Numbered from the stretch's first letter, positions 27,859-44,073 are shown. The stretch: DNA of 64,000 nt from Candidatus Cloacimonadota bacterium (GCA_049903315.1 JBNGBT010000003.1:64001-128000); one strand, 5' to 3'. Made by a program: numbers and translations. The notes: a model not told the origin generated them from the letters alone.

Positions 27859-28320
27859 TCAAATTTTGCTGTTTGGAAATTGTTCTTTAATAATAATAGA
27901 AGTAATCTCAGGAATTACCTCAGCAACTTTTTCAGTGCATTTCTCGGAAAAGGTAAAAATATCTTCAACTTCAATCGCATAAATTATAATTTCTTTCGGA
28001 AGATCAGCATCGTGTTTTTTCATAAGTTCGAGTGCGCTGAACATATCCATGTCGTGCGGGGAACTGTGATGGAGTGTGGATTTGAATTCCTCGATGCCAA
28101 ACTTGAAATAATTACCGGGTTGTCCATTCTTGGTTCTGATTGAATCAATTAAGATAAGCTTGTCATAACCGATTATTTCATCAACAACACGAAATCCAGC
28201 AGCACTTGCTTCGATTACATCTATATCAGGTAGTTTTTCCTTGATCAGTCTGGCGACGTGAATCCCAACACCATCATCAGAGAGAATTGTGTTACCAAGT
28301 CCAAGAACAAGGGTTTTCAC
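27859..28320 (-). CDS. Hydrogenase maturation protease
   Basis: LGLGNTILSDDGVG, ILIDSI and SSPHD. Immediately downstream of the large subunit gene. Confidence 0.92.
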   Translation of the reverse strand: MKTLVLGLGNTILSDDGVGIHVARLIKEKLPDIDVIEASAAGFRVVDEIIGYDKLILIDSIRTKNGQPGNYFKFGIEEFKSTLHHSSPHDMDMFSALELMKKHDADLPKEIIIYAIEVEDIFTFSEKCTEKVAEVIPEITSIIIKEQFPNSKI

Positions 28321-28322
28321 GC

Positions 28323-29786
28323 TTAGTCTCTACGAATGGTTTCTACTATTGAATTGTCCTTGTCATGCACGTTTATAATAAGAGGTGTCGAGCCGGGTAA
28401 TGAATGCGTCGCACATGCCATACAGGGGTCATATGCACGGAAAGCCATTTCCACCATGTTTAGCAAACCATCATCAACCTTACCGTTCTTAATAAGGGCT
28501 TTGGCGGCTTTTGCAATAGAAAGTGACATTGCTGCAGAATTTCCAACAGTCGCAACAATCAGGTTTACTGCTTTGACCATTCCCTGCTCATCAGTTTTAT
28601 AATGATGAATAAGTGTACCTCGTGCAGCTTCAACGATGCCAACACCTTCAGATGGTGTCTCAGTAGGTATATTTCTGATATCTGGAGAAATGATCGTTTT
28701 ATCTTCGAGCAGTTCAATAATATGCTCGGATGCGTATAAAGCTTCGATCAAGCGTGCCCAGTGGAATGCCAGCGTGTTATGTGCCGGTTTGCCACCGAGT
28801 GTTTCATACATGCGCTCATATTCTTCTTGAGCCATTGGAGTTGCCATGCCATCAGAAACATTGAGACGCGCAAGAGGAGCAACGCGGTAAATCCCACTTT
28901 TCTTTCCATCTTCAAAGCCTTTCCAGCCGATGGTTTTGAGGAAGGGGAATTTCATATAACTCCAGGGCTCAACGTGTTCTGCGATCTGCTGCAGATATTC
29001 CTCAGGTCCGAATTTTGAAAATTCTTTGCCGTCAGGATCGACCACACGGACTTTGCCGTCATAAAAATTCACTTTATTATTTTCATCGACCAAGCCCATG
29101 TAATAGGTTTTGTGTTTATAAATATCACCGACAATAAGATCAACATATGCATTATTGCCAAGGACAATATTGTTGAATATTTCGATGCTTTCTTTTGCGA
29201 AATCTCGCGCTTCGAGAGCAATTTTCAGGAATTCCAGTCTTTTTTCTTCAGTCAAACCCTTAGAGACACCGCCGGGAAGCCCACCAACAGGATGGATTAT
29301 CCTGCCGGAGAGATACGTAACGATATTTCTTATCTGTCTGCGGTTTTTGATTACTCTGGTCCCGATTTCCAAGCCGACTTTTGCAATAACGCCAAGAATA
29401 TTACGCTCTTTTGCAGGTGCTGATGGTGTGACTACAAAATCAGGACCGCCAAGGAAGAAGAAGTGCAGCATGTGATCTTCAAATATATAGGAATCATAGA
29501 CAAGTTGGCGAAGTTTCTTTGCAGTTTCAGTTGGTTTGACATTATATACGGCATCGACTGTTTTCGTGGAAGCCATATGATGAGCCATGGGACACACACC
29601 GCAAATTCGTGGTGTGATACGTGGCAGTTCTTCGACGGGACGGTCAATGCAAAACTGCTCAAACCCCCTTAATTCAGGAATTTGCAGATATGCATTTTCT
29701 ACATTGCCGCTGTCGTCTAAAAATATTTCTATTTTACCATGGCCTTCCAGCCTGGTAATAGGATCTATAGTGACTTTTGTACCCAT
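28323..29786 (-). CDS. mvhA: [NiFe]-hydrogenase large subunit, MvhA/group 3c type
   Basis: TRLEGHG, L1 PRICGVCPMAH and L2 AFRAYDPCMACATH, followed by a cleavable C-terminal tail. Confidence 0.93.
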   Translation of the reverse strand: MGTKVTIDPITRLEGHGKIEIFLDDSGNVENAYLQIPELRGFEQFCIDRPVEELPRITPRICGVCPMAHHMASTKTVDAVYNVKPTETAKKLRQLVYDSYIFEDHMLHFFFLGGPDFVVTPSAPAKERNILGVIAKVGLEIGTRVIKNRRQIRNIVTYLSGRIIHPVGGLPGGVSKGLTEEKRLEFLKIALEARDFAKESIEIFNNIVLGNNAYVDLIVGDIYKHKTYYMGLVDENNKVNFYDGKVRVVDPDGKEFSKFGPEEYLQQIAEHVEPWSYMKFPFLKTIGWKGFEDGKKSGIYRVAPLARLNVSDGMATPMAQEEYERMYETLGGKPAHNTLAFHWARLIEALYASEHIIELLEDKTIISPDIRNIPTETPSEGVGIVEAARGTLIHHYKTDEQGMVKAVNLIVATVGNSAAMSLSIAKAAKALIKNGKVDDGLLNMVEMAFRAYDPCMACATHSLPGSTPLIINVHDKDNSIVETIRRD

Positions 29787-29792
29787 GATATA

Positions 29793-30806
29793 TTATTTCT
29801 CCTCTTTTGAATCGGTCATAATTTTTCTGCGGAAATAGGATTTCGCAAGAGAGAATCGATAGAACAGACCTGCTGGATCGACAATCTGGTCAAGGAGTTT
29901 CTGAACATGAGCTTCACTCATATCCTCCTCGCCTTCCAGTCCTACTACAGAAGCGAGGGCAGCGATCATTTTCGCGCCGACATCATGTACTTCTGAGGGT
30001 GGTCCATAGCAGCCCCTGCACGGCATATTTGCTGTAATACAGCGTCCGTCATTCTCTCCATTACAGCCCGAACGGGTGACAGGACCCATGCAAATGATCC
30101 CCTGTGCAAGAAAGCATTTTTCGGGATCTACTTGTACTAATGAGACACGATTTATTTTATCCAGAGATAGTTTTTCCGGTTTAGTTTCATTTCTGGAGCA
30201 TACTTCGCAGAGCGCTTTGTTTGGAGCGAGAACTGTTCCTTTTGGAGGTAGATCTCCGGATAAGATCGTTTTGATTGCACGCATGGTGAGATAGGGAGCA
30301 GGAGAACAGCCCGGGAGATAGTAATCCACATCAATGACTTGATCGGTCGCTTTCACCGTGTTGTGGAATTTTGGAAGCGTGAGTTCACCCTCTGGTACTT
30401 CGGATAGCTCTTGTGGGACAACGCCATCTGGATTATCAACAGAGGGGCATTTGCCCCCATAGGATGAAGCGAAAATAGATTCCCTATCCCAGAAATTTGC
30501 AAGACCAGGTATGCCGCCAAGCTGCGAACAGGATCCGAAAGAAATAATGAGTTGCGCTTTCTTACGAAGCAGTTTTGCCATCTCTTCCTGCTCGTCTGTA
30601 CGAATAGCTCCATTTATAAAGCATACAGTGATCTCATTATCCTGCATGTTTTTTACATCTGATGTCTTGAAATCCATCGCACAGGGCCAGAATACTATAT
30701 CGATGAGCTCAGCAACTTTCAATATATCCTCATGCAGATCAACGATCGCTTCTTCGCATCCACCACAGGATGCGCACCAATAAAAACCAACTTTTGGCTT
30801 TGCCAT
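29793..30806 (-). CDS. mvhG: [NiFe]-hydrogenase small subunit, MvhG type
   Basis: WCASCGGCEE, FGSCSQLGG, LPGCSP and CFLAQGIICMGPVTRSGC...CRGCYGP. No Tat signal, so cytoplasmic. Confidence 0.92.
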   Translation of the reverse strand: MAKPKVGFYWCASCGGCEEAIVDLHEDILKVAELIDIVFWPCAMDFKTSDVKNMQDNEITVCFINGAIRTDEQEEMAKLLRKKAQLIISFGSCSQLGGIPGLANFWDRESIFASSYGGKCPSVDNPDGVVPQELSEVPEGELTLPKFHNTVKATDQVIDVDYYLPGCSPAPYLTMRAIKTILSGDLPPKGTVLAPNKALCEVCSRNETKPEKLSLDKINRVSLVQVDPEKCFLAQGIICMGPVTRSGCNGENDGRCITANMPCRGCYGPPSEVHDVGAKMIAALASVVGLEGEEDMSEAHVQKLLDQIVDPAGLFYRFSLAKSYFRRKIMTDSKEEK

Positions 30807-30824: not shown

Positions 30825-31263
30825 AAACCACGAATTAACACAGATTTTCTCGAATTATAAAATGATTCTTTCATATTGCAGACTCTGTGAATGAAAGTTC
30901 AAAATAATTGCTAAACGCAATCCGGTGGCTTTTAAATAATTAAGTGCTTGAGCTTTATGAATATCAGTTATTTGCTCAACAGTTTTTAATTCTAATATGA
31001 CTTTATTCTCCACAAGAATATCTGCAAAATAGCTGCCAACATTCTCATTTCTAAACATGACATTTATTTGTTTTTGTTGTTCAGCTTCAATTCCTTCCTT
31101 TCGAAATAGAACCATCATAGCATTTTCATAAACCTTTTCTAAGAAACCCGGTCCGAGTTCTCTATGAACACTCATAGCGACACCTATTATTTTGAACGAA
31201 AGATTTTTAAAAAGAAGTTTTTCTTTTTGCACATTAGTGTCCATTCGAGTTAATCCGTGGTTT
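30825..31263. mobile_element. Inverted-repeat-bounded GxxExxY cassette inserted in the operon
   Basis: Left end AAACCACGAATTAACACAGATTTTCTCGAAT and right end ATTAGTGTCCATTCGAGTTAATCCGTGGTTT are imperfect inverted copies built from ~10-nt units. Confidence 0.6.
30855..31244 (-). CDS. GxxExxY protein
   Basis: VHRELGPGFLEKVYENA, ADILVENKVILELK and QALNYLKATGLRLAIILNF. Confidence 0.92.
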   Translation of the reverse strand: MDTNVQKEKLLFKNLSFKIIGVAMSVHRELGPGFLEKVYENAMMVLFRKEGIEAEQQKQINVMFRNENVGSYFADILVENKVILELKTVEQITDIHKAQALNYLKATGLRLAIILNFHSQSLQYERIIL

Positions 31264-31265
31264 CT

Positions 31266-32933
31266 TTATCTTAATGTTCCTTGATATTCAGTAGTATGTT
31301 GACGTTCTTTTACAGAAGAGGGAGTATAATCTGGTAGCACCATTGGGGAGATATGTTTTTTATCTACTCCGATCTTTTGAACTTCCTTATCATATTCGGT
31401 GATATGGGAAAGGGTCAATGCACCAGTTTTAATTTTCTTTGCGTACTGCGCCGCATAAATACCAGCGCGACGTCCGAAGACAATGAGATCTAGTTGAGAA
31501 TTTCCCATCAAACGATTACGACCATGAATGCCGCCTGCTGCTTCACCAGCAACAAAAAGACCATTAACTTTTGTTTCACAATGATCATTTATTTCTATTC
31601 CGCCGTTCTGGTAATGAAGTGTAGGGTACACAAGGATGGGATCCTGGGTAATGTCAACATCAAATCGCTCGAACTGACGAAGCATAGCGGGCAGGTTTTT
31701 CTTTATTGTGCCTGATCCGCTTATTTTTTCTATTAGCGGCGAGTCAAGCCAGATACCGACCTGACCACCTGGTGTTGGGATACCCAGGTCGCGAGCTGTG
31801 CATTCCCGAATGAACGATGATGCTTCAATATCACGTGGTTCAAGAGGATGAACAAATAAATCACCATTTTTATTTACTGGCTGTGCACCGAGTCCACGAA
31901 GTTTTTCCGTGCAGAGAAATCCAAGAATTTGTGGAGGATACACGGCACCTGTCGGATGATATTGCACCGAATCCATGTACAACAGATTTGCTCCAGCGCG
32001 ATATGCGATTACAAGCCCGTCCGCAGTTGCGCCGTAATGATTGGTCGTTTCAAATCCCTTCACATGAAGGCGCCCAAAGCCACCAGTTGCAATGATAGTA
32101 GCTTTGGCTTTAACTGTGTAATAGTTCCTATTTTCGAGATGGTACAGCACTGCACCTGCGACATTTCCCTTATCGTCTTTAATCAGTTCAACTGCTGGCT
32201 GATGCTCGAGAATCTTAATTTTATCAGGCCTGTTAAGTATCTCATCACGGATAGTTCTGCAAATCGCTGCGCCAGTGTAGTCCCGGGCAGAATGCATACG
32301 GGGACGGCATGTGCCGCCGCCTGGTTTTGTGAGCATTGTTCCTTCTTCAGTCCTGTCAAACATAACACCGAGATCCTGAAGCCAGTGTATCGCATCTGGA
32401 GCTTCTGAGACCAATGCTTTGACCAGTGCGGGGACATTATCAAAGTGTCCGCCACCCATCACATCGAGATAATGAAGGATAGGATTGTCATCAGGAAGAA
32501 CTGCTGCCTGGATTCCACCCTGAGCCATCATTGAGTTGGAATCCCCGATTCGAAGCTTTGTAACGAGAAGGACATCCGCTCCGTTTTCTGCTGCGAGAAG
32601 TGATGCGGAAAAACCAGCAGAACCTGCCCCAATAACGAGGACATCGGTTTCATAGTCAGGATGTTTCAGGTCGAAAAAGTTCGGCTTGATCCTCGAATAA
32701 GCCTCGAGTTGATCAACGACTTCGGTCGTAATAGTCTCGCCTTTGTTCGGTCCGATACGCACTTTTTTGCGTGCATCTTTCTTATAGTCAGGATGGAAAT
32801 TATCAAGCACTTCCTGCCGTTCTTCCGCAGACATCATCGGGAAGATCGATTTACCTGAACGTGCGAGTTTCAATCGCTCCGGTCGTGTTTTTTCGACTTT
32901 TCTGATCGATTTGCGCATATATTCTGGATACAT
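31266..32933 (-). CDS. Soluble fumarate-reductase/SdhA-family flavoprotein (TfrA-like)
   Basis: VIGAGSAG FAD loop, SNSMMAQGG, IIATGGFG, QYHPTG, EKLRGLG, PRD, HYQNGG, AGE and NRLMGNS. Confidence 0.85.
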   Translation of the reverse strand: MYPEYMRKSIRKVEKTRPERLKLARSGKSIFPMMSAEERQEVLDNFHPDYKKDARKKVRIGPNKGETITTEVVDQLEAYSRIKPNFFDLKHPDYETDVLVIGAGSAGFSASLLAAENGADVLLVTKLRIGDSNSMMAQGGIQAAVLPDDNPILHYLDVMGGGHFDNVPALVKALVSEAPDAIHWLQDLGVMFDRTEEGTMLTKPGGGTCRPRMHSARDYTGAAICRTIRDEILNRPDKIKILEHQPAVELIKDDKGNVAGAVLYHLENRNYYTVKAKATIIATGGFGRLHVKGFETTNHYGATADGLVIAYRAGANLLYMDSVQYHPTGAVYPPQILGFLCTEKLRGLGAQPVNKNGDLFVHPLEPRDIEASSFIRECTARDLGIPTPGGQVGIWLDSPLIEKISGSGTIKKNLPAMLRQFERFDVDITQDPILVYPTLHYQNGGIEINDHCETKVNGLFVAGEAAGGIHGRNRLMGNSQLDLIVFGRRAGIYAAQYAKKIKTGALTLSHITEYDKEVQKIGVDKKHISPMVLPDYTPSSVKERQHTTEYQGTLR

Positions 32934-32957
32934 ATCTATTCTCCTAAACTTTTAAAT

Positions 32958-33644
32958 TTATCCTGTTTTAATATCGCGATCATAATATCGCTTTTTTATG
33001 GTTTCTGCATCAGATTTCTCGAGTTTTTGAAGTTCATCTTCATACAGTCCCTCTGCAATTTCTTTAACTCGATTTTCAAGGTCTGGGCTTTTGGGAAGAA
33101 GATACTTTCCTGTAAGACGGCGAGCAAGGATGGCTGCATTATATTGTACGATTTCTGCAGGGCATCTCAGCGCACATAATCCACAGCGGATACAGTCAAA
33201 TGAAAGATCTGCTGCTCTGGCAACATCACCCCGGATAAGTGCCTGCACATAATCCATCACTTCGATATCCTGAGGGCATATCTTCGTACAAGTATTGCAT
33301 CCCACACATCTGAACAGTGTCGGATAAAGTGTTTTGAAAGCATCGATATCAGGATCAACTTTATTAATATCGTAAATGGACTTTTCGGCAGGAACAAACG
33401 GAATCTGAGCGATGTTCATTCCGTCTGTGACAACAGTCTGGCATGCAAGACCTGCCTGCAATTTATAGTCACCCTTTTCTCTATACAAGGTTCCGCATGC
33501 ACCACAAAAACCTTCTCGACAACCGACACCAACCGTCAGCTGAAAGCCTGCATACTCCAATGCACCGATTATGGTTGACCCTTCTGGCACATCAAAACCT
33601 TCCCCTAAAATATATACTTTCACCATGGGAACGTTCTTAGGCAT
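32958..33644 (-). CDS. Fe-S subunit ([2Fe-2S] + 2x[4Fe-4S]) of the fumarate-reductase-like enzyme
   Basis: GCREGFCGAC...LACQT, CVGCNTCTKICP and CIRCGLCALRCP. Confidence 0.85.
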   Translation of the reverse strand: MPKNVPMVKVYILGEGFDVPEGSTIIGALEYAGFQLTVGVGCREGFCGACGTLYREKGDYKLQAGLACQTVVTDGMNIAQIPFVPAEKSIYDINKVDPDIDAFKTLYPTLFRCVGCNTCTKICPQDIEVMDYVQALIRGDVARAADLSFDCIRCGLCALRCPAEIVQYNAAILARRLTGKYLLPKSPDLENRVKEIAEGLYEDELQKLEKSDAETIKKRYYDRDIKTG

Positions 33645-33749: not shown

Positions 33750-34166
33750 TCATGTACAATCAATCTTAGGAATTGGACCTAATTTCTTGATTTGTTCAGT
33801 AAATTCTTTCATGCTGTTTGCAAATTTTTTTCCTTCGCTTGCAGATATCCATTCCAGTCGAAGACGATTGGGATTCAACCCGAGTTGTTCCAGTACTTTT
33901 TTCAGCAATATCACTCTTCTTTTCGTTTTATAATTACCACTTTGATAATGACAGTCACCGGGATGACATCCGCCTATGAATACACCGTCGCATCCTTTGC
34001 TGAATGCAAGGAGTACATGCTGCGGATCTACACGTGACGAGCAGAGTGTTTTTATCACCACGCCATTTGGCGGATATTTCATGCGTGATGTGCCGGCAAG
34101 GTCTGCACCGGAATAGGTACACCATTTACATAAGAAACAGACAATTTTTGGTTCAAAATCTTTCAT
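33750..34166 (-). CDS. mvhD: Hydrogenase iron-sulfur subunit MvhD
   Basis: FEPKIVCFLCKWCTYSGADLAG, CSSRVDP, GCHPGDCHY and WISASEG. The start is set at MKDFEP (34166). Confidence 0.93.
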   Translation of the reverse strand: MKDFEPKIVCFLCKWCTYSGADLAGTSRMKYPPNGVVIKTLCSSRVDPQHVLLAFSKGCDGVFIGGCHPGDCHYQSGNYKTKRRVILLKKVLEQLGLNPNRLRLEWISASEGKKFANSMKEFTEQIKKLGPIPKIDCT

Positions 34167-36165: not shown

Positions 36166-37044
36166 TTACATTAAACCTTTTTCTTTAAGCAGGGGCTCGG
36201 GATTGACATAATGTAGTTTCTTCCAGTCCTTATTCCATTTCTGCCCAAGTGCAATTGCCATGAGTTCTGTAAAATAGAAAACAGGCATGGGTGTAAATTC
36301 CAAAAATTCTTTAGATGTTTCTTTCTGTCGCTGATCGAGGTTGAATGCACATAGCGGACAGCTTGTGATAAGTGCTTCACAACCAGCATCGCGTGCGGAG
36401 TTTATGATCTCATAAGTCCTTTTTACCGTCACATCTGTTTCGATAATGGTTTGATATGCTCCGCAGCATTCCAGCCGGTAAGGAAATACAACACCCTCGC
36501 CGCCAAGTGTATTCACAAGCTCTTCCATAATAGTGGGATCTTCATAATCATCTATTGCAAGTTCTTTCGGGCGTACAAGAAGGCATCCGTAATATGCGCC
36601 GATCTTCATATCTTTAAGGGGTTTTGTAATCTTTTCCTTGATTCCCTCAAAAGTAATTCTATTCTTGAGAATGCTCAGAAGATGCACAACATCTGTCGTC
36701 CCCTTGAATTTTGAATCTTCTTTGTACATGAAGTCATTGACTTTACGCAGATTTTCTTCATCATTAAGAATGAATTCCTTTGCCCTTTTCAGTGTATTAT
36801 AGCACATACTGCACAAAGTTACAAGTTCATCATATCCCTGATTCTCAGCGCGGAGAAGATTTCTGATCGAAGAAAGCTGAAGCATGAGGTCATCTGTCGT
36901 CATTGAGAATACAGTGCCGCAACAGATCCAATTTTCCATCTCTTCTAACGGTTGTCCGAGCACTTCCATGACTTGCATAGCGGATTCTTCAAAATGCTTG
37001 GCATTTGTCTTCAGAGTGCAACCCGGGAAATATCCAAGTTTCAT
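36166..37044 (-). CDS. hdrB: Heterodisulfide reductase subunit B (two CCG domains)
   Basis: YFPGCT...WICCG...LCSMC and YYGCLL...ECCG...SCPLC. Confidence 0.92.
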   Translation of the reverse strand: MKLGYFPGCTLKTNAKHFEESAMQVMEVLGQPLEEMENWICCGTVFSMTTDDLMLQLSSIRNLLRAENQGYDELVTLCSMCYNTLKRAKEFILNDEENLRKVNDFMYKEDSKFKGTTDVVHLLSILKNRITFEGIKEKITKPLKDMKIGAYYGCLLVRPKELAIDDYEDPTIMEELVNTLGGEGVVFPYRLECCGAYQTIIETDVTVKRTYEIINSARDAGCEALITSCPLCAFNLDQRQKETSKEFLEFTPMPVFYFTELMAIALGQKWNKDWKKLHYVNPEPLLKEKGLM

Positions 37045-37110: not shown

Positions 37111-37518
37111 CTAACCTGTAAGTTTGCGAAATGCGCTGACCAATGCAATTTGCGGAAGGTCTTTCAGCTCTTTTGATGAAAGGTCTTCGGGTTTAAGTGT
37201 ACCCCCCCGCTGGCGAAGATTGATAGTGCGAAGCGCTTCCATAACTTGTGCAACCTCTATGCCTTTTGGACAGCGTGTCGAGCACTGCAGGCATGTCGAG
37301 CATATCCAGATAGTTTTTGAGTTAAGTAATTCATCGACGCAGCCGAGTTGAGCAAGACGAATAACCTGGTTGGGAGGTAAGTCCATGTAATCAGTAACAG
37401 GGCAGCCGGACGAACAAATTCCGCATTGATAACAATCAAATACATTCTGTCCGGAGATTTCTTCAATTTTATCAACAAGAGAATTCTTTATATTTTCGCG
37501 GGTGATCTTTAAACTCAT
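37111..37518 (-). CDS. hdrC: Heterodisulfide reductase subunit C
   Basis: CYQCGICSSGCP and IWICSTCLQCSTRCPKG. Adjacent to hdrB. Confidence 0.9.
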   Translation of the reverse strand: MSLKITRENIKNSLVDKIEEISGQNVFDCYQCGICSSGCPVTDYMDLPPNQVIRLAQLGCVDELLNSKTIWICSTCLQCSTRCPKGIEVAQVMEALRTINLRQRGGTLKPEDLSSKELKDLPQIALVSAFRKLTG

Positions 37519-38057
37519 TATTGTTCCTCATTATAATCATAACCTGCCTGAAATGCTTTCATGTTCAGGTCTTTGAATTTACTGGGTACAGAATCAGAGA
37601 TAGCTTCCTTCATTGCATCAGGAGATACTATCTTTGCCTGTTTTGTTGCGAATCCCAGCATAACTATGTTTGCCACGATCTTTTTACCAAGTTCTTCAGC
37701 AAGACGGGTTGCAGGAATTCCTTTTGCAATAAAATCTTTATGTGACTGTATCTTCTCCACAAGATCAGTATCATACAAAAGGATACCGCCATTTTTCAGG
37801 ATCGGAAGAAAGGTATCATATCCTTCCTGGGACATTGCAAGGAGAACATCGGCACTATCAACAAGCGGGTATTCAACATTTTGGGATGAAATGACAACCT
37901 GCGAGCTACAAGCGCCACCACGAGCTTCCGGTCCGTATGCCTGGGTCATGGAAGAGTGTTTCTGATCATATATTGAAGCTGCTTTTCCAACAATGAAGGC
38001 TGAGAGGATAATGCCCTGTCCGCCAAATCCTGATATTTTAACTCTGAGTTCGCTCAT
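37518..38057 (-). CDS. korC: 2-oxoacid:ferredoxin oxidoreductase gamma subunit
   Basis: SGFGGQGII, YGPEARGGAC and NIVMLG. Substrate (2-oxoglutarate) inferred from context. Confidence 0.85.
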   Translation of the reverse strand: MSELRVKISGFGGQGIILSAFIVGKAASIYDQKHSSMTQAYGPEARGGACSSQVVISSQNVEYPLVDSADVLLAMSQEGYDTFLPILKNGGILLYDTDLVEKIQSHKDFIAKGIPATRLAEELGKKIVANIVMLGFATKQAKIVSPDAMKEAISDSVPSKFKDLNMKAFQAGYDYNEEQ

Positions 38058-38074
38058 GTATTGCTCCTGACAAA

Positions 38075-39007
38075 TTAAAAATCTCTACTTGCTGTATATT
38101 TTCGATCTTTTCTATGTGTAATTTTTCTGGAATTGCTTTGCATCTCTTCCCAGTTTGAAAACTTTGCTAACCGGGTTTTAATACCAGCCTGGACATTTTC
38201 CCAGAAAGTGGGTCTGTCTTCATTTACAAATTCACCACACACGATCTCATTATCCATGCTGAGAGGTATTTGTGTTGGGTCAGCTTCATGGTTTATAATA
38301 GCTCGTGTCTGGAATTCTTTAAGCAGATCCAGCCCTGTTCCACCCTTATTTTTACGCGCAAAAACCGTTGCACAGGGAGAGACTATCTCTATAAAGCAGA
38401 AACCTTTTTTGTTGGCAGCCCTCGCAATTGAATCTGTCAAACGACGGGCATGCATTGTGGTCCAGCGAGCTACATAACTTGCGCCTGCAGCAGCTGCAAG
38501 CCCAACCAGATTAAAGGGCATCTCATAGTTGCCGTATGGAGCGGTCGAACTATAAGCGCCAAGTGGAGTAGTAGGGGCGTTTTGCCCACCGGTCATGCCA
38601 TATATGAAATTGTTCACACAGATCACATTAATATCTACATTTCTTCTTGCTGCATGGATGAGATGGTTTCCACCGATTGCAAAGAGGTCACCGTCCCCAG
38701 AAAATACAAATACTGTAAGATCGCGATTTGCGAGTTTCAGCCCTGTCGCAAAAGGTATTGCTCGACCGTGAGTCGTATGATAAGAATCAAGCCGAAGATA
38801 GCCGGCAACTCGACCGGTACAGCCGATGCCCGACACTATTGCTGTTTTATCATAAGACACGCCTGCTTTTTTCAAACCTTCTATAAAGGTTGTCACTGCT
38901 GAGCCAAGCCCACACCCGGAGCACCAGATATGAGGCATTCTATCCATTCTCAGGAGATCTTCCATTGGATGGGATATTTCTTGTATTTGAGCTGTATTAT
39001 TTGCCAT
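38075..39007 (-). CDS. korB: 2-oxoacid:ferredoxin oxidoreductase beta (TPP-binding) subunit
   Basis: WCSGCG, SGIGC, HTTHGRA, GDGDLFAIGGNH and NNFIYGMTGGQ. The start is set at MANNT (39007), overlapping the alpha gene end. Confidence 0.88.
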   Translation of the reverse strand: MANNTAQIQEISHPMEDLLRMDRMPHIWCSGCGLGSAVTTFIEGLKKAGVSYDKTAIVSGIGCTGRVAGYLRLDSYHTTHGRAIPFATGLKLANRDLTVFVFSGDGDLFAIGGNHLIHAARRNVDINVICVNNFIYGMTGGQNAPTTPLGAYSSTAPYGNYEMPFNLVGLAAAAGASYVARWTTMHARRLTDSIARAANKKGFCFIEIVSPCATVFARKNKGGTGLDLLKEFQTRAIINHEADPTQIPLSMDNEIVCGEFVNEDRPTFWENVQAGIKTRLAKFSNWEEMQSNSRKITHRKDRKYTASRDF

Positions 39008-40154
39008 GTGCGACCTCTTCAATTGCGTGCAGCACGTCTTCAAATTTATGTATGCCGCCACCGGGATGTGGAACAAGTTTGACGTGTGAATTGTCATGTG
39101 AGCATCGTTCTACTTCGAGTGATATTTGCCCGAGATTCATTTCGGGAACGATAAAACCAGCCACTTTTCCTGAAAGTTTGCGTATTTTTTCTTCGGGGAA
39201 AGGCCATACTGTTTTTAAGCGTAAATATCCAACTTTAATTCCCTTTTTCTTTGCCATAGTTATCGCAGGGAGAACAGTGCGGGATGTAATTCCATAGGAA
39301 ATCACGATCACATCTGCACCTTTGATATCATATTCTTCAGTTAGAGAAATATCATTTATATTATTTTTGATTTTATTCACAAGCCTGGGCACGAGTTCTT
39401 CCTGGCATTCAACGGACATGTCTGGATAACCACGTCTGTCATGAGTGAGTCCTGTTGTATGATAGCGATATCCGTCACCAGCTTTTGCAAAATCAGGGAT
39501 TAGATTTTTACCATAATCATATGCGAGATAATCTGCTGGTTTTTTATTTGTATATTTCCTATTAATAATCTCAAGTTCTTCAATTGGGGGAATGATAACT
39601 TTCTCTGTCATGTGTCCTACGAGTGCGTCTGCCATAAGGAAAACTGGTAGTCTGTACTTTTCAGAAAAATTGAAAGCAGTTACTGTGAGATCAAAGAATT
39701 CCTGGGGTGAGTTCGGTACAAGAGAGATACTTCCGTAGTCACCATGTGAACCCCATCGAGCCTGCATCATATCTGATTGTCCCCAGGTGGTTGGAAGTCC
39801 TGTGGAAGGCGAACCTCTTTGTACATTGACCACTACGCATGGAGCTTCCATCATCATACCAAGACCGATGTTCTCGTTCATGAGCGAGATGCCCGGTCCA
39901 GATGTTGCGGTCATGGATTTCATGCCAGCCCACGAAGCGCCGAGTATTCCTGCCATTGATGCAATTTCGTCTTCATACTGTATAAATACTCCCTGAAGAA
40001 GCGGGAGTCTCATTGCCATACGTTCTGCAATTTCTGATGCGGGAGTTATAGGATAGCCCCCAAAGAAACGGCACCCGGCAGCAAGTGCACCTTCAGCACA
40101 GGCGATATCGCCCTGCATGAAAAATTCACCATGTAATCGTGATTCTTGGAACAC
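38997..40154 (-). CDS. korA: 2-oxoacid:ferredoxin oxidoreductase alpha subunit
   Basis: GYPITPASE, EDEIAS, TATSGPG, QRGSPSTGLPT and EMNLGQ. Confidence 0.88.
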   Translation of the reverse strand: MFQESRLHGEFFMQGDIACAEGALAAGCRFFGGYPITPASEIAERMAMRLPLLQGVFIQYEDEIASMAGILGASWAGMKSMTATSGPGISLMNENIGLGMMMEAPCVVVNVQRGSPSTGLPTTWGQSDMMQARWGSHGDYGSISLVPNSPQEFFDLTVTAFNFSEKYRLPVFLMADALVGHMTEKVIIPPIEELEIINRKYTNKKPADYLAYDYGKNLIPDFAKAGDGYRYHTTGLTHDRRGYPDMSVECQEELVPRLVNKIKNNINDISLTEEYDIKGADVIVISYGITSRTVLPAITMAKKKGIKVGYLRLKTVWPFPEEKIRKLSGKVAGFIVPEMNLGQISLEVERCSHDNSHVKLVPHPGGGIHKFEDVLHAIEEVAHGK

Positions 40155-40414
40155 TATTCCTCCTTCTCAGTAACAAATATTGCAAAATCAGGACAGATCA
40201 TTTCACATAAGCCACAAAAAGTACACTTGTCCGGTTTTGCGACAACAGGAGGATGATATCCCTTTTTGTTAAAATCCTTGGAGAGTTCAAGTACATCTCT
40301 GGGACAGTACTCGATACAGAAGGAGCATCCTTTACATCGATCGGTGATGATATGGATTTCTCCGCATATTGTTTTGGGTTTTTCTTTCCCAAATGGCTTT
40401 TCCCAATATCTCAT
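40154..40414 (-). CDS. korD: 2-oxoacid:ferredoxin oxidoreductase delta (2x[4Fe-4S] ferredoxin) subunit
   Basis: CKGCSFCIEYCP and CTFCGLCEMICPDFAI. Confidence 0.85.
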   Translation of the reverse strand: MRYWEKPFGKEKPKTICGEIHIITDRCKGCSFCIEYCPRDVLELSKDFNKKGYHPPVVAKPDKCTFCGLCEMICPDFAIFVTEKEE

Positions 40415-40603: not shown

Positions 40604-41164
40604 TCAAGTTTCAATTTTATATTTCTCGACACCTTCCTGATAGATGTCATTTCCATAAATATCATTTGCGACAATGCACGGAAAATCCTCGACTTTGAGT
40701 TCGCGAATTGCTTCAGTTCCGAGATCATCGTAAGCAATCACTTTTGCAGCAGTAATGGATTTGGCAACGACCACTGCAGCTCCGCCGATCGCAGCGAGAT
40801 ACACTGCCTTGTTCTTTTTCATGGAATCGATAACTGCCTGACTGCGAGGACCTTTGCCGATCATGCCTTTGAGTCCGACATCCATAAGTGCAGGTGCATA
40901 GGGGTCCATTCTATAGCTTGTGGTAGGACCTGCAGAACCGATCGGTTTTCCGGGAGGAGCCGGAGCAGGACCAACGTAATATATTATTTGCCCTTTTATA
41001 TCAAAGGGAAGTTCTTTTCCTGCTTCAACAAGATCGACCAACCGCTTGTGTGCTGCATCCCGCCCTGTGTAGATCGTTCCGGAAATAAGCACTTTGTCGC
41101 CGATAGAAAGTTTGGAAACATCTTCATCTGTCAAAGGAGTCTGCAATTTTACTGTCTGTGCCAT
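40604..41164 (-). CDS. Class I Fe-S fumarate hydratase, beta subunit (tartrate/fumarate hydro-lyase family)
   Basis: GRDAAHKR, GPTTSYRMD, MIGKG and DLGTEAI. Confidence 0.9.
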   Translation of the reverse strand: MAQTVKLQTPLTDEDVSKLSIGDKVLISGTIYTGRDAAHKRLVDLVEAGKELPFDIKGQIIYYVGPAPAPPGKPIGSAGPTTSYRMDPYAPALMDVGLKGMIGKGPRSQAVIDSMKKNKAVYLAAIGGAAVVVAKSITAAKVIAYDDLGTEAIRELKVEDFPCIVANDIYGNDIYQEGVEKYKIET

Positions 41165-41176
41165 GTGATTTCCTCC

Positions 41177-42022
41177 TTAAATGACTGCTGTTTTATGCCG
41201 TGCTGCATGACATTGAATGTTCACTGCTACAGGCATTGAAGCAATGTGACAAGGTTTGTACATGATGGACACAGCGAGAGCAGTTGTTCTGCCACCGAAT
41301 CCCTGGGGACCGATCCCGAGCTTGTTCACTTTTTCCAGAATTTCCGCTTCTACTTTTGCCCATTTTTTTTCAGGATGAGATTCATTGAGGGGGCGGAGCA
41401 GTGATTTTTTGGCAAGAAGTGCACTCTGCTCAAAGTTCCCGCCAAGACCGACACCTACAACTATTGGAGGACAAGGATTTCCACCGGAACGTCTTACGCG
41501 GTCAACGACAAAATTCACCACGCCCTCGATGCCGTCCGCAGCTTTCATCATTTTCACTTCGCTCATGTTCTCGGAACCACCGCCTTTAGGTGCAACGGTG
41601 ATCTTTATTTTCTCGCCGGGCACAATATCAGTATAAATGAGTCCGGGAGTGTTATCTTTTGTGTTCACACGACCGATGATAGGGTCATCAACAAGAGACT
41701 TACGTAAATAGCCATCTTTATAACCCTGACGGATGCCTTCATGGATCGCTTCATAAAAATCTCCACCCACGAGATGAACATCCTGTCCGAGCTCGACAAA
41801 AACAACTGCCACACCGGTATCCTGGCAGGATGGCATTTTTTCTTTGGCTGCCAGTTCATAATTTTCCAGAAGGATAGCAAGCACTTCCTTTGCTGTTGGA
41901 GACTCTTCTTTTTCGTAAAATTCCTTGATCTTATCTAGCACATCTTCACCAATGTAATAGTTGGCATCGATACACAGTTTTTTGACAACAGGAATAATTT
42001 CTTTTACATCGATTTCTCTCAC
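41177..42022 (-). CDS. Class I Fe-S fumarate hydratase, alpha subunit
   Basis: CQDTG, YLRKS, PKGGGSEN, GNPCPP, GIGPQGFGG and CHAARH. Confidence 0.9.
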   Translation of the reverse strand: MREIDVKEIIPVVKKLCIDANYYIGEDVLDKIKEFYEKEESPTAKEVLAILLENYELAAKEKMPSCQDTGVAVVFVELGQDVHLVGGDFYEAIHEGIRQGYKDGYLRKSLVDDPIIGRVNTKDNTPGLIYTDIVPGEKIKITVAPKGGGSENMSEVKMMKAADGIEGVVNFVVDRVRRSGGNPCPPIVVGVGLGGNFEQSALLAKKSLLRPLNESHPEKKWAKVEAEILEKVNKLGIGPQGFGGRTTALAVSIMYKPCHIASMPVAVNIQCHAARHKTAVI

Positions 42023-42031
42023 GAAAACTCC

Positions 42032-42901
42032 TTATGATAAAACTTCTATGGTTGCTTGTCCGATATCAGCAGGTGATTTGCAAACACGTACACTGGCCTG
42101 TTCAAGGGCGGTCATCTTTTCCTGAGCAGTACCCTTGCTGCCTGCAATGATAGCGCCTGCATGTCCCATCCGCTTTCCTTTGGGCGCGGTCTGCCCAGCG
42201 ATGAAAGCAACAACGGGTTTTTTCATATGATTTTTTATATAATGAGCTGCCTGGATTTCAAGGTCGCCACCGATCTCGCCTATGATAACCACCGCATGAG
42301 TTTCGGGATCGTCTTCAAAACGTTTCAGCAGATCGATAAATGTCGAGCCTATGATCGGGTCACCGCCGATACCGATGGCAGTAGTAACACCCAATCCTGC
42401 TTTCACAACCTGATTTGCAGCTTCGTAGGTTAGGGTGCCGGATTTCGATATGACACCGACATGCCCTTTTTTGAAAATACTTCCCGGCATAATGCCGATC
42501 TTTGCTTCACCTGCCGTGATGATGCCCGGACAGTTCGGTCCGATGAGTACTGAGCCCTTTTTTGTGACGTACATTTTTGCATACATAACATCAAGTGTGG
42601 GAATGCCTTCGGAAATACACACGATAACTTTAATGCCTGCATCGGCAGCTTCCATGATTGCATCTGCAGCAAAAGATGGCGGAACGAGAATGAGTGAGGT
42701 GTCAGCTCCGGTATGATCAACCGCATCTTTGACTGTGCTGAACACAGGTCTGCCAAGATGGATCTGACCTCCTTTACCGGGGGTTACACCACCAACTATA
42801 TTCGTGCCGTATTCAATACACTGCTCTGCATGAAAGGTAGCTTCTTTGCCCGTAAAACCCTGCACTATAACTTTCGAATTTTTATTTACTAATATTCCCA
42901 T
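42032..42901 (-). CDS. sucD: Succinyl-CoA ligase alpha subunit
   Basis: [36 protein letters not shown] and MGHAGA (phospho-His). Confidence 0.96.
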
Positions 42902-42903
42902 GA

Positions 42904-44073
42904 TCACACTCCCTTTGCCGCTTCAACTGCTTTTTGAGCTCCATCAGCGAGACTGCTGGCAGAAATAATATTTGGAATGTGTGCTTTTTGGAGAATTTCC
43001 TGCGCGATTTCAGCATTCGTTCCATCCAGCCGGACAATGACAGGAACAGAAACATTAGTCTCTTTTGCAGCATCGAGTATGCCGTTTGCAATCCTGTCAC
43101 AGCGAACGATCCCGCCGAAAATGTTCACAAAGATCGCTTTTACATTTTTATCTCTGAGAATGATTTCGAAGCCCTTTGCTACAGTTTCTGCCGAAGCATC
43201 TCCGCCGACATCGAGGAAATTTGCTGGTTCGCCGCCTTTGATTTTAATAATATCCATCGTGGACATCGCAAGCCCAGCGCCGTTTACCATGCATCCTACA
43301 TTGCCGTCGAGTTTGATGTAATTCAGGTTGAAATTACTCGCTTCCAGTTCAGTTGGTTCTTCTTCGGAAAGATCACGCATCTCAAGAATATCCGGATGTC
43401 TGAACAGGGCGTTATCATCAAAATTTATTTTTGCATCGAGTGCAATAAAGGTGTCATCATCTTTCAGTACAAGGGGATTAATTTCGATAAGACTCGCGTC
43501 TTTTTCTTTATAGAGTTTATACAAAGCACGGGCAAATTGTGCAAAATTACGGGATTGCAATTTATCCAACCCAAGCCCGTTCGCAAGCATCACACCATGA
43601 AAATTCCTAAAGCCGATCAGGGGATCGATGCGTACTTTAATTATCTTTTCCGGAGATTCCGCAGCGACTTTTTCGATTTCCATTCCGCCTTCGGTCGATA
43701 CGATCATCACAGGCATTTCTGATCCGCGGTCAAGCACCAGCCCAAGATAATATTCTTTCTTGATTGGTGCAACTTCTTCGATATAGATTTTCTGAACGAG
43801 TTTGCCTTTGGGACCTGTCTGGTGAGTGACCAATTTCATGCCCAGCATATTCTCTGCAATGGTTTTTACATCTTCAATCGAGGATGCGATTTTAACTCCG
43901 CCGCCCTTTCCTCTGCCGCCTGCATGCACTTGTGCTTTAACTACCCATTTTTTGCTGTCGATCTCTCGGGCTGCTTCTATTGCTTGCTCAGGAGTCTCGG
44001 CCATCGTGCCGTGTGGGATTGTCACACCATAATGTTTGAAAAGCTGTTTCGCTTGATATTCATGAATATTCAT
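42904..44073 (-). CDS. sucC: Succinyl-CoA ligase beta subunit
   Basis: [42 protein letters not shown] and [10 protein letters not shown]. Confidence 0.96.

Follow-up and report, generated by a model that had tools for sequence, protein, structure and literature searches.

A flavoprotein and iron-sulfur subunit encoded among hdr and mvh genes of a Cloacimonadota genome: a likely membrane-free fumarate reductase

The FeS-Fp pair

The window analyzed in this study is a stretch of 64,000 nucleotides from a Candidatus Cloacimonadota bacterium (GCA_049903315.1 JBNGBT010000003.1:64001-128000). It contains two genes, 24 bp apart and both on the minus strand, that encode an iron-sulfur subunit (FeS) and a flavoprotein (Fp) of the complex II superfamily, and both open reading frames were found where an earlier note on the window had placed them. 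The pair lies in a co-oriented run of 18 genes (sucC-sucD-fumA-fumB-korD-korA-korB-korG-hdrC-hdrB-hdrA-mvhD-FeS-Fp-GxxExxY-mvhG-mvhA-protease) in which the widest gap is 189 bp. The data presented here suggest that FeS and Fp are likely a membrane-free pair that reduces fumarate to succinate with electrons from H2, delivered via Mvh and HdrABC; the substrate, direction, bifurcation and docking of the pair are all points that we infer.

When Fp was aligned to E. coli FrdA (the FrdA, SdhA and NadB references were taken from the annotated K-12 record), all 7 of 7 dicarboxylate-site residues were kept, in line with the dicarboxylate-site motifs that the earlier note had read: FrdA H232/T244/E245/R248/R287/H355/R390 correspond to Fp H326/T342/E343/R346/R367/H440/R474. 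The note had also reported the loss of the His that binds flavin adenine dinucleotide (FAD) covalently, and indeed Asn133, within S-N-S-M-M-A-Q-G-G, stands at the position of the flavinylation residue His44 of FrdA and is invariant in 40/40 aligned homologues, a selection from 120 listed. The same His is absent from two reference TfrA proteins, so its loss is not peculiar to Fp. Gly205, conserved in at least 90% of the 40 homologues, occupies the position of FrdA Phe116 and NadB Glu121, where the Phe lines the pocket of FrdA and SdhA.

Fp also differs from the reference enzymes at both ends, again in agreement with the earlier note. Its Rossmann motif begins after 101 residues, compared to 11-14 in E. 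coli SdhA, FrdA and NadB, and the conserved N-terminal extension of 95 residues is modelled as helices in the predicted structure, with a predicted local distance difference test score (pLDDT) mostly >80. The tail after the RLxGN motif is 77 residues long, versus 138-233 in the NadB, TfrA, TfrA-like, Sdh1, SdhA and FrdA rows that were readable by motif count. The core of the predicted structure matches Sdh1 and FrdA with template modelling (TM) scores of 0.64-0.66, and Fp is the sole full-length FAD_binding_2 protein of the genome. Among relatives of Fp, a group of flavoproteins of about 400-415 residues (P0274, P0283, P0287, P0298 and similar) has neither extension nor tail, and in several of these the catalytic Thr position is occupied by Pro. 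A 542-residue member of the wider family that has the N-terminal extension (P0256/P0432) bears the name of Prochlorococcus sp. MIT 1201 as its source.

The FeS subunit has 12 Cys residues (42/47/50/68; 113/116/119/123; 151/154/157/161), arranged as a [2Fe-2S] motif and two complete [4Fe-4S] motifs, as the earlier note had read, whereas SdhB and FrdB of E. coli each have 11 Cys. None of the 12 positions varies (45/45). FeS is 24% identical to E. coli FrdB across 149 residues, and its C-terminal half is HdrC-like (probability 94.7%). No match to the CCG Pfam domain was detected in FeS, so the note's statement that there is no CCG domain holds for this subunit; it does not hold for the cluster, where HdrB carries two. 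The predicted FeS structure was set aside, as its pLDDT was 60 and a fold search returned weak [2Fe-2S]-domain matches only. FeS and Fp are fused in one database protein (P0252), and FeS is joined to a FlxA/HydG-type NAD/FAD domain in eight others; the junctions of these eight are variable and they may be read-through artefacts, and they are counted here as evidence of adjacency only.

Gene cluster and genome context

The genes of the cluster are listed in Table 1. All six MvhADG-HdrABC subunits are encoded at the locus, with HdrA, HdrB and HdrC scoring below the methanogen equivalog cut-offs. HdrA keeps the FAD-site residues aligned to 5ODC Glu356 and Lys409, and the 10 cluster Cys of HdrB are invariant in 45/45 loci.

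Table 1. Genes in and around the FeS-Fp pair, in window coordinates
Feature	Coordinates	Strand	Remarks
Hydrogenase maturation protease	27859..28320	-	
mvhG + mvhA, F420-non-reducing-type [NiFe] hydrogenase	28323..30806	-	
GxxExxY protein, passenger gene	30855..31244	-	5 other homologous matches in genome
Flavoprotein Fp, 555 aa, complex II superfamily	31266..32933	-	dicarboxylate site intact; Asn133, Gly205; 95-aa N-terminal extension, short tail
FeS subunit, 228 aa: [2Fe-2S] motif + HdrC-like domain, two CxxCxxCxxxCP, no CCG	32958..33644	-	
mvhD, FlpD family, hydrogenase-Hdr adaptor	33750..34166	-	
hdrA, 651 aa	34201..36156	-	full-length match to 5ODC chain A
hdrB, 292 aa, two CCG domains	36166..37044	-	
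hdrC, 135 aa, two 4Fe-4S motifs	37111..37518	-	
korDABG, four-subunit 2-oxoacid (likely 2-oxoglutarate):ferredoxin oxidoreductase	37518..40414	-	
Class I fumarate hydratase alpha + beta	40604..42022	-	over NCBIfam cut-offs
sucC + sucD, succinyl-CoA synthetase	42032..44073	-	over NCBIfam cut-offs

A scan for promoters and terminators remained at chance level (44 vs 38.6 +/- 6.0; 15 vs 14.7 +/- 4.2), so the case for co-transcription is one of spacing. Between 5 and 12% of words were matched in RNA runs, and the contigs were mostly 85-95% alike, i.e. from relatives; they therefore have no bearing on expression or on a single transcript. The GxxExxY gene between Fp and mvhG is absent from that place in most related loci, and homologues occur elsewhere in related clusters.

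Profile searches across the genome, which is 96.4% complete, found no Sdh_cyt or FrdC family match, in line with the earlier note's claim that the pair has no membrane anchor. HdrB, encoded 2.5 kb upstream of the pair, is the only CCG protein of the genome, where no second one was found. There was no match to ComA, DsrC or TusA. A ComD-like match fell below the cut-off (G000 C44:16265-16723); its 379-residue frame is absent from 10 congeners and could, as a guess, be a phosphonopyruvate decarboxylase. Methylmalonyl-CoA mutase is encoded in the genome. ATP-citrate lyase (ACL) is encoded elsewhere on the same contig as the pair, adjoining open reading frames that, on inspection, look like those of isocitrate dehydrogenase and aconitase.

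A type E or MFR-like arrangement, in which HdrB would take the part of SdhE and anchor the enzyme peripherally at the membrane, next to quinone, seems barely credible. HdrB does score nearly as well on the MFR SdhE model as on the HdrB model (163 and 170 bits, both below cut-off), and one UbiA-family gene is present. However, hdrB is flanked by the genes for HdrA and HdrC, the MFR model gives Fp a score of 197 where its cut-off is 1100, and there was no MqnA/D match in the genome, the classical men pathway being outside this search.

Phylogenetic placement

The best NCBIfam match of Fp is TfrA, at 327 bits against a cut-off of 718 (NF004900), and FeS scores 40 bits on the TfrB model against a cut-off of 385. 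Out of 150 Fp representatives, 78 near-full-length ones were family-scanned and 57 were placed in a quick tree of 72 rows. The careful tree has 30 rows, omitting redundant rows and the long-branch row P0349, and is unrooted because AprA was left out; its TfrA rows are Methanococcus voltae and a Methanomicrobiales cluster. In that tree the family to which the pair belongs, together with its sister groups, splits from TfrA, Sdh1, SdhA/FrdA and NadB at 100/100. An approximately unbiased (AU) test rejected a grouping of the core family with the two TfrA rows (p 2e-69), a grouping that was chosen after the first tree and that excluded the sister rows. By these sequence comparisons Fp is a clade of its own, neither TfrA nor NadB. 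A TfrA identity was rejected on the split, the AU test and the below-cut-off score together. Membership in SdhA/FrdA (complex II types A-D) fails on Asn133, the 12 Cys residues and the missing anchor family match.

An identity with NadB was likewise rejected, as Fp has Gly205 instead of Glu121, lies outside the NadB clade at 100/100 and scores 272 bits on the NadB model, whose cut-off is 453. That Fp nevertheless acts on another substrate, as an L-aspartate oxidase or dehydrogenase in the role of NadB or on another enoate, is very unlikely. The genome has nadA and no NadB or NadX match, and the pocket position of Phe116/Glu121 is Gly, both of which would suit this idea. However, nadA is an orphan inside a polysaccharide gene cluster (L094:7810-8745, G000 C55) and no nadC was found over the cut-off in the genome; 9/24 carriers of the family in the Cloacimonadota sample described below encode one more homologue, of NadB size and 32-36% identical; and the gene neighbors of the pair encode fumarase and succinyl-CoA synthetase.

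A sister clade (P0253, ~40-47% identity), whose query protein comes from a metagenome-assembled genome (MAG) of a gammaproteobacterium, has the same two-subunit FeS-Fp anatomy. A NuoF-like NADH-binding gene follows the sister pair directly in 46/59 loci with downstream sequence, and no hdr or mvh match was found in 74 sister-clade loci. In these loci (L104-L177, e.g. L106:9372-12891) the NuoF-like NADH/FMN subunit often stands before korAB. The trio is a candidate three-subunit NADH:fumarate reductase.

Distribution and co-occurrence with Hdr

Among 7514 candidates there were 7030 FeS homologues at E <= 1e-10, and the loci surveyed were the best 80 of 591 genome loci, with neighbor labels taken from best BLAST hits to the window proteins. 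They come from Cloacimonadota, Marinimicrobia, Myxococcota, WOR-3, Chloroflexota, Sumerlaeota and others. Fp follows FeS in 74/80 loci, and the remaining 6 stop at the locus edge. The 48 well-flanked loci contain hdrB in 41 cases, hdrA in 40, fumA in 23, mvhA in 21 and korA in 16, with no hdr gene in view in 6. When the 12 genomes behind selected loci were searched, including the 6 hdr-less ones, HdrA and CCG matches were present in 12/12; these genomes may overlap the Cloacimonadota sample.

That sample consists of 111 Cloacimonadota genomes, each at least 90% complete. The family occurs in 24 of them (55-100% identity), HdrB in 26 and HdrA in 27, and all 24 family carriers have both HdrA and HdrB. 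None of the 85 HdrB-negative genomes has the family, and in the two HdrB-positive genomes without it the contigs stop just after mvhD or hdrB. This suggests that the pair depends on Hdr, in keeping with the earlier note's proposal of a soluble, anchor-less fumarate reductase of that kind. MvhA is present in 20/24 carriers, in one of them at only 39%.

These counts also bear on whether Fp-FeS is a stand-alone fumarate reductase fed by ferredoxin or flavodoxin, clustered with hdr and mvh for co-regulation only. Two [4Fe-4S] motifs could take electrons from ferredoxin, and hdr linkage is missing both from the 6/48 well-flanked loci and from three near-complete genomes in which a long distance separates the pair and hdr (G033, G044, G089). 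However, every carrier keeps HdrA and HdrB while hardly any other genome of the sample has Hdr (26-27/111), and if the pair is left aside, the genome offers no evident acceptor for the high-potential electrons of HdrABC. A stand-alone enzyme is rather improbable.

Several loci depart from the arrangement in the window. In L007:12431-14876 the stretch between Fp and mvhG contains another mvhD along with genes for a small FeS protein and for a FAD dehydrogenase that resembles GlcD at a score below the cut-off, and genes resembling this insert also occur in L006, L011, L012, L015 and L029. A second, longer hdrA (~790-800 residues) lies beside or near the 650-residue hdrA in L004:4154-6731, L025, L066 and L103, and the ~790-residue form is the sole one in many other loci.

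Discussion

The explanation favored by this study, to which a probability of roughly 0.45 is given, is that Fp-FeS carries out H2-driven fumarate reduction and is wired to HdrABC by protein contact. Electrons from H2 would pass through MvhAG and MvhD to the FAD of HdrA, which would bifurcate them. On the low-potential arm, ferredoxin or KorD would be reduced for the reductive carboxylation of succinyl-CoA by KorABG. On the high-potential arm, electrons would run from HdrC/HdrB to the two [4Fe-4S] clusters, the [2Fe-2S] cluster and the non-covalent FAD, and then to fumarate, with transfer to FeS by protein contact and without free coenzymes M and B (CoM/CoB). The overall reaction, 2 H2 + fumarate + Fd_ox -> succinate + Fd_red, would yield about -70 kJ/mol under standard conditions. 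Because ACL is present, the system could serve a reverse tricarboxylic acid (TCA) cycle in this genome. ACL was found in 5/24 carriers and 19/24 have no ATP-citrate lyase match, and in most carriers the role would be limited to the reductive C4 branch.

The same net reaction could also be reached with a diffusible carrier, if MvhADG-HdrABC reduces an unknown disulfide together with ferredoxin and Fp-FeS-HdrB re-oxidizes the thiols through the same HdrB, as a split thiol:fumarate reductase (TFR). This is doubtful, but it has real points on its side. The Cys residues of HdrB are invariant and the C-terminal half of FeS is HdrC-like; hdrB stands directly upstream of FeS in 20/80 loci, and L036 and L049 have hdrC-hdrB-FeS-Fp without an adjacent hdrA. 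A TFR with CoM/CoB was proposed in PMC8542988, and such a route was raised as an option in PMC6315080. However, the genome has no match to ComA, DsrC or TusA, and the ComD-like match is below the cut-off and missing from the 10 congeners. One CCG protein would have to run in both directions, as it would in the four of the 12 locus-selected genomes that have a single CCG protein (G114, G115, G116, G120). The flavoprotein is not TfrA, and no FeS-CCG fusion was found among 7997 longer candidates, though this last point is weak evidence. Protein contact is favored because donors swap modularly, there is no second CCG protein and there is no known thiol carrier.

Another possibility is that the system runs in reverse and confurcates, with succinate and reduced ferredoxin giving fumarate and 2 H2 while propionate or glutamate is degraded under very low H2. 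At 1 Pa H2 and with ferredoxin at -500 mV the reverse reaction comes to ~ +12 kJ/mol by hand calculation, which is reachable with a high succinate:fumarate ratio, and the low number of carriers with ACL would fit. A methylmalonyl-CoA epimerase gene lies directly upstream of FeS, between kor and suc/fum, in L037:9269-9670 and L038:6075-6476, and the genome under study has the mutase; however, mutase and epimerase are equally compatible with propionate formation. At standard state the reverse reaction costs +70 kJ/mol, and the potential of non-covalent FAD is too low for efficient succinate oxidation. In addition, the authors of PMC8542988 found no propionate-oxidation capacity in their MAGs. 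Net succinate oxidation by this system is considered unlikely.

A number of observations weigh against H2-driven fumarate reduction by direct contact. The HdrB cluster Cys residues conserved in all 45 loci are what would be expected if disulfide turnover persists. The HdrC-like half of FeS means that FeS plus HdrB reproduces the TfrB domain order, so a thiol loop via a shared HdrB is possible. MvhA is missing from 4/24 carriers, and the pair is far from hdr in the three genomes named above. The genomes are kin, and the co-occurrence counts therefore overstate independence. Since Gly205 replaces the pocket Phe of FrdA/SdhA, the substrate of Fp is something that we infer. In Ca. Endoriftia the cluster is co-expressed except for tfrAB, which is out of step with the rest (PMC11636981, Mitchell et al. 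2024).

A wider version of H2-driven fumarate reduction by Fp-FeS is offered more tentatively. In it, HdrA would bifurcate H2 electrons within one supercomplex to fumarate, by way of an FeS subunit that resembles HdrC and a flavoprotein of separate lineage, and to 2-oxoglutarate synthase, with no free thiol or quinone, and FeS-Fp would be a plug-in terminal module for Mvh-Hdr, Flx or NuoF-type donors across lineages. In many bacteria HdrABC occurs although coenzymes M and B do not, and the acceptor of its high-potential electrons is known for few of them; fumarate would be a concrete answer here. If this is true, the reduced ferredoxin of 2-oxoglutarate synthase would be paid for with energy that soluble fumarate reduction otherwise tends to lose, making a quinone-free reductive TCA branch cheaper.

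Neither the cluster nor the idea of electrons passing from Hdr to fumarate is new, and the earlier note's claim of a new architecture has to be given up. Williams et al. 2021 (PMC8542988) described the same genes in the same order in Ca. Celaenobacter as TFR + 2-oxoglutarate:ferredoxin oxidoreductase (OGOR) + Mvh + Hdr; their TfrA/TfrB tags on contig Ga0208771_1000075 correspond to locus L004, where both proteins are 92% identical to the pair, and match locus L038 by coordinates as well. The genome studied here is likely that of a relative of Ca. Celaenobacter. In the accessible text the pair is labelled TFR and a CoM/CoB cycle is drawn, without biochemistry. In contrast to that label, Fp falls outside TfrA, FeS has no CCG domain and no marker of CoM synthesis was found here. 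The additions made by this study are the separate clade placement, the carrier counts for HdrA, HdrB and ACL in the Cloacimonadota sample and the sister clade with a NuoF-like gene; because of this separate lineage, and because most carriers have no ATP-citrate lyase match, care is called for with the name "TfrAB" and with the autotrophy deduced from that name. No purification, assay or structure of such a complex was found in the literature searched, which covered the supplements of two papers and few subscription journals.

The same hypothesis was put forward for tubeworm symbionts by Rubin-Blum et al. 2019 (PMC6315080), who proposed a complex in which OGOR and TfrAB take their electrons directly from bifurcating Hdr. 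The proposed Flx-Hdr/TfrAB/KorABCD complex of these symbionts and of Thioflavicoccus likewise has an anchor-less fumarate reductase, with kor genes interspersed with hdr. The donor would be NADH via Flx there and H2 via Mvh here. The bifurcation proposal is restated in PMC13147460, which asks for tests of AB-type soluble enzymes. Hydrogenobacter thermophilus FrdABCDE and the AB-type enzymes discussed there also combine soluble, irreversible fumarate reduction with a soluble redox module; however, FrdABCDE is NADH-fed, has five subunits and no Hdr. It is the only characterized functional analogue found in the literature searched.

Methanogen TfrAB (NF004900/NF004898; described in PMC8764690) resembles the pair in being soluble and without the flavinylation His, and the dicarboxylate site is intact in the pair. 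However, Fp is 35% identical to M. voltae TfrA, forms a separate clade and lacks the helical tail, and the CCG domains are not fused here. E. coli SdhAB and FrdAB share fold and catalytic residues with the pair, which differs in having no His44, [3Fe-4S] motif, anchor or helical domain.

The remainder of the cluster resembles MvhADG-HdrABC (PDB 5ODC) in that the full Mvh-Hdr set, the HdrA FAD-site residues and the HdrB Cys residues are all kept; further background is given in PMC7325909 and PMC3578206. MvhADG-HdrABC was also reported in clade B Cloacimonadota, with CoM-S-S-CoB given as the textbook acceptor (PMC12590816). In contrast, no source of CoM-S-S-CoB is evident in this genome, and the high-potential acceptor would instead be fumarate. 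This would parallel MetFV-HdrABC-MvhD, for which methylene-tetrahydrofolate (methylene-H4F) is the proposed acceptor (PMC5861303).

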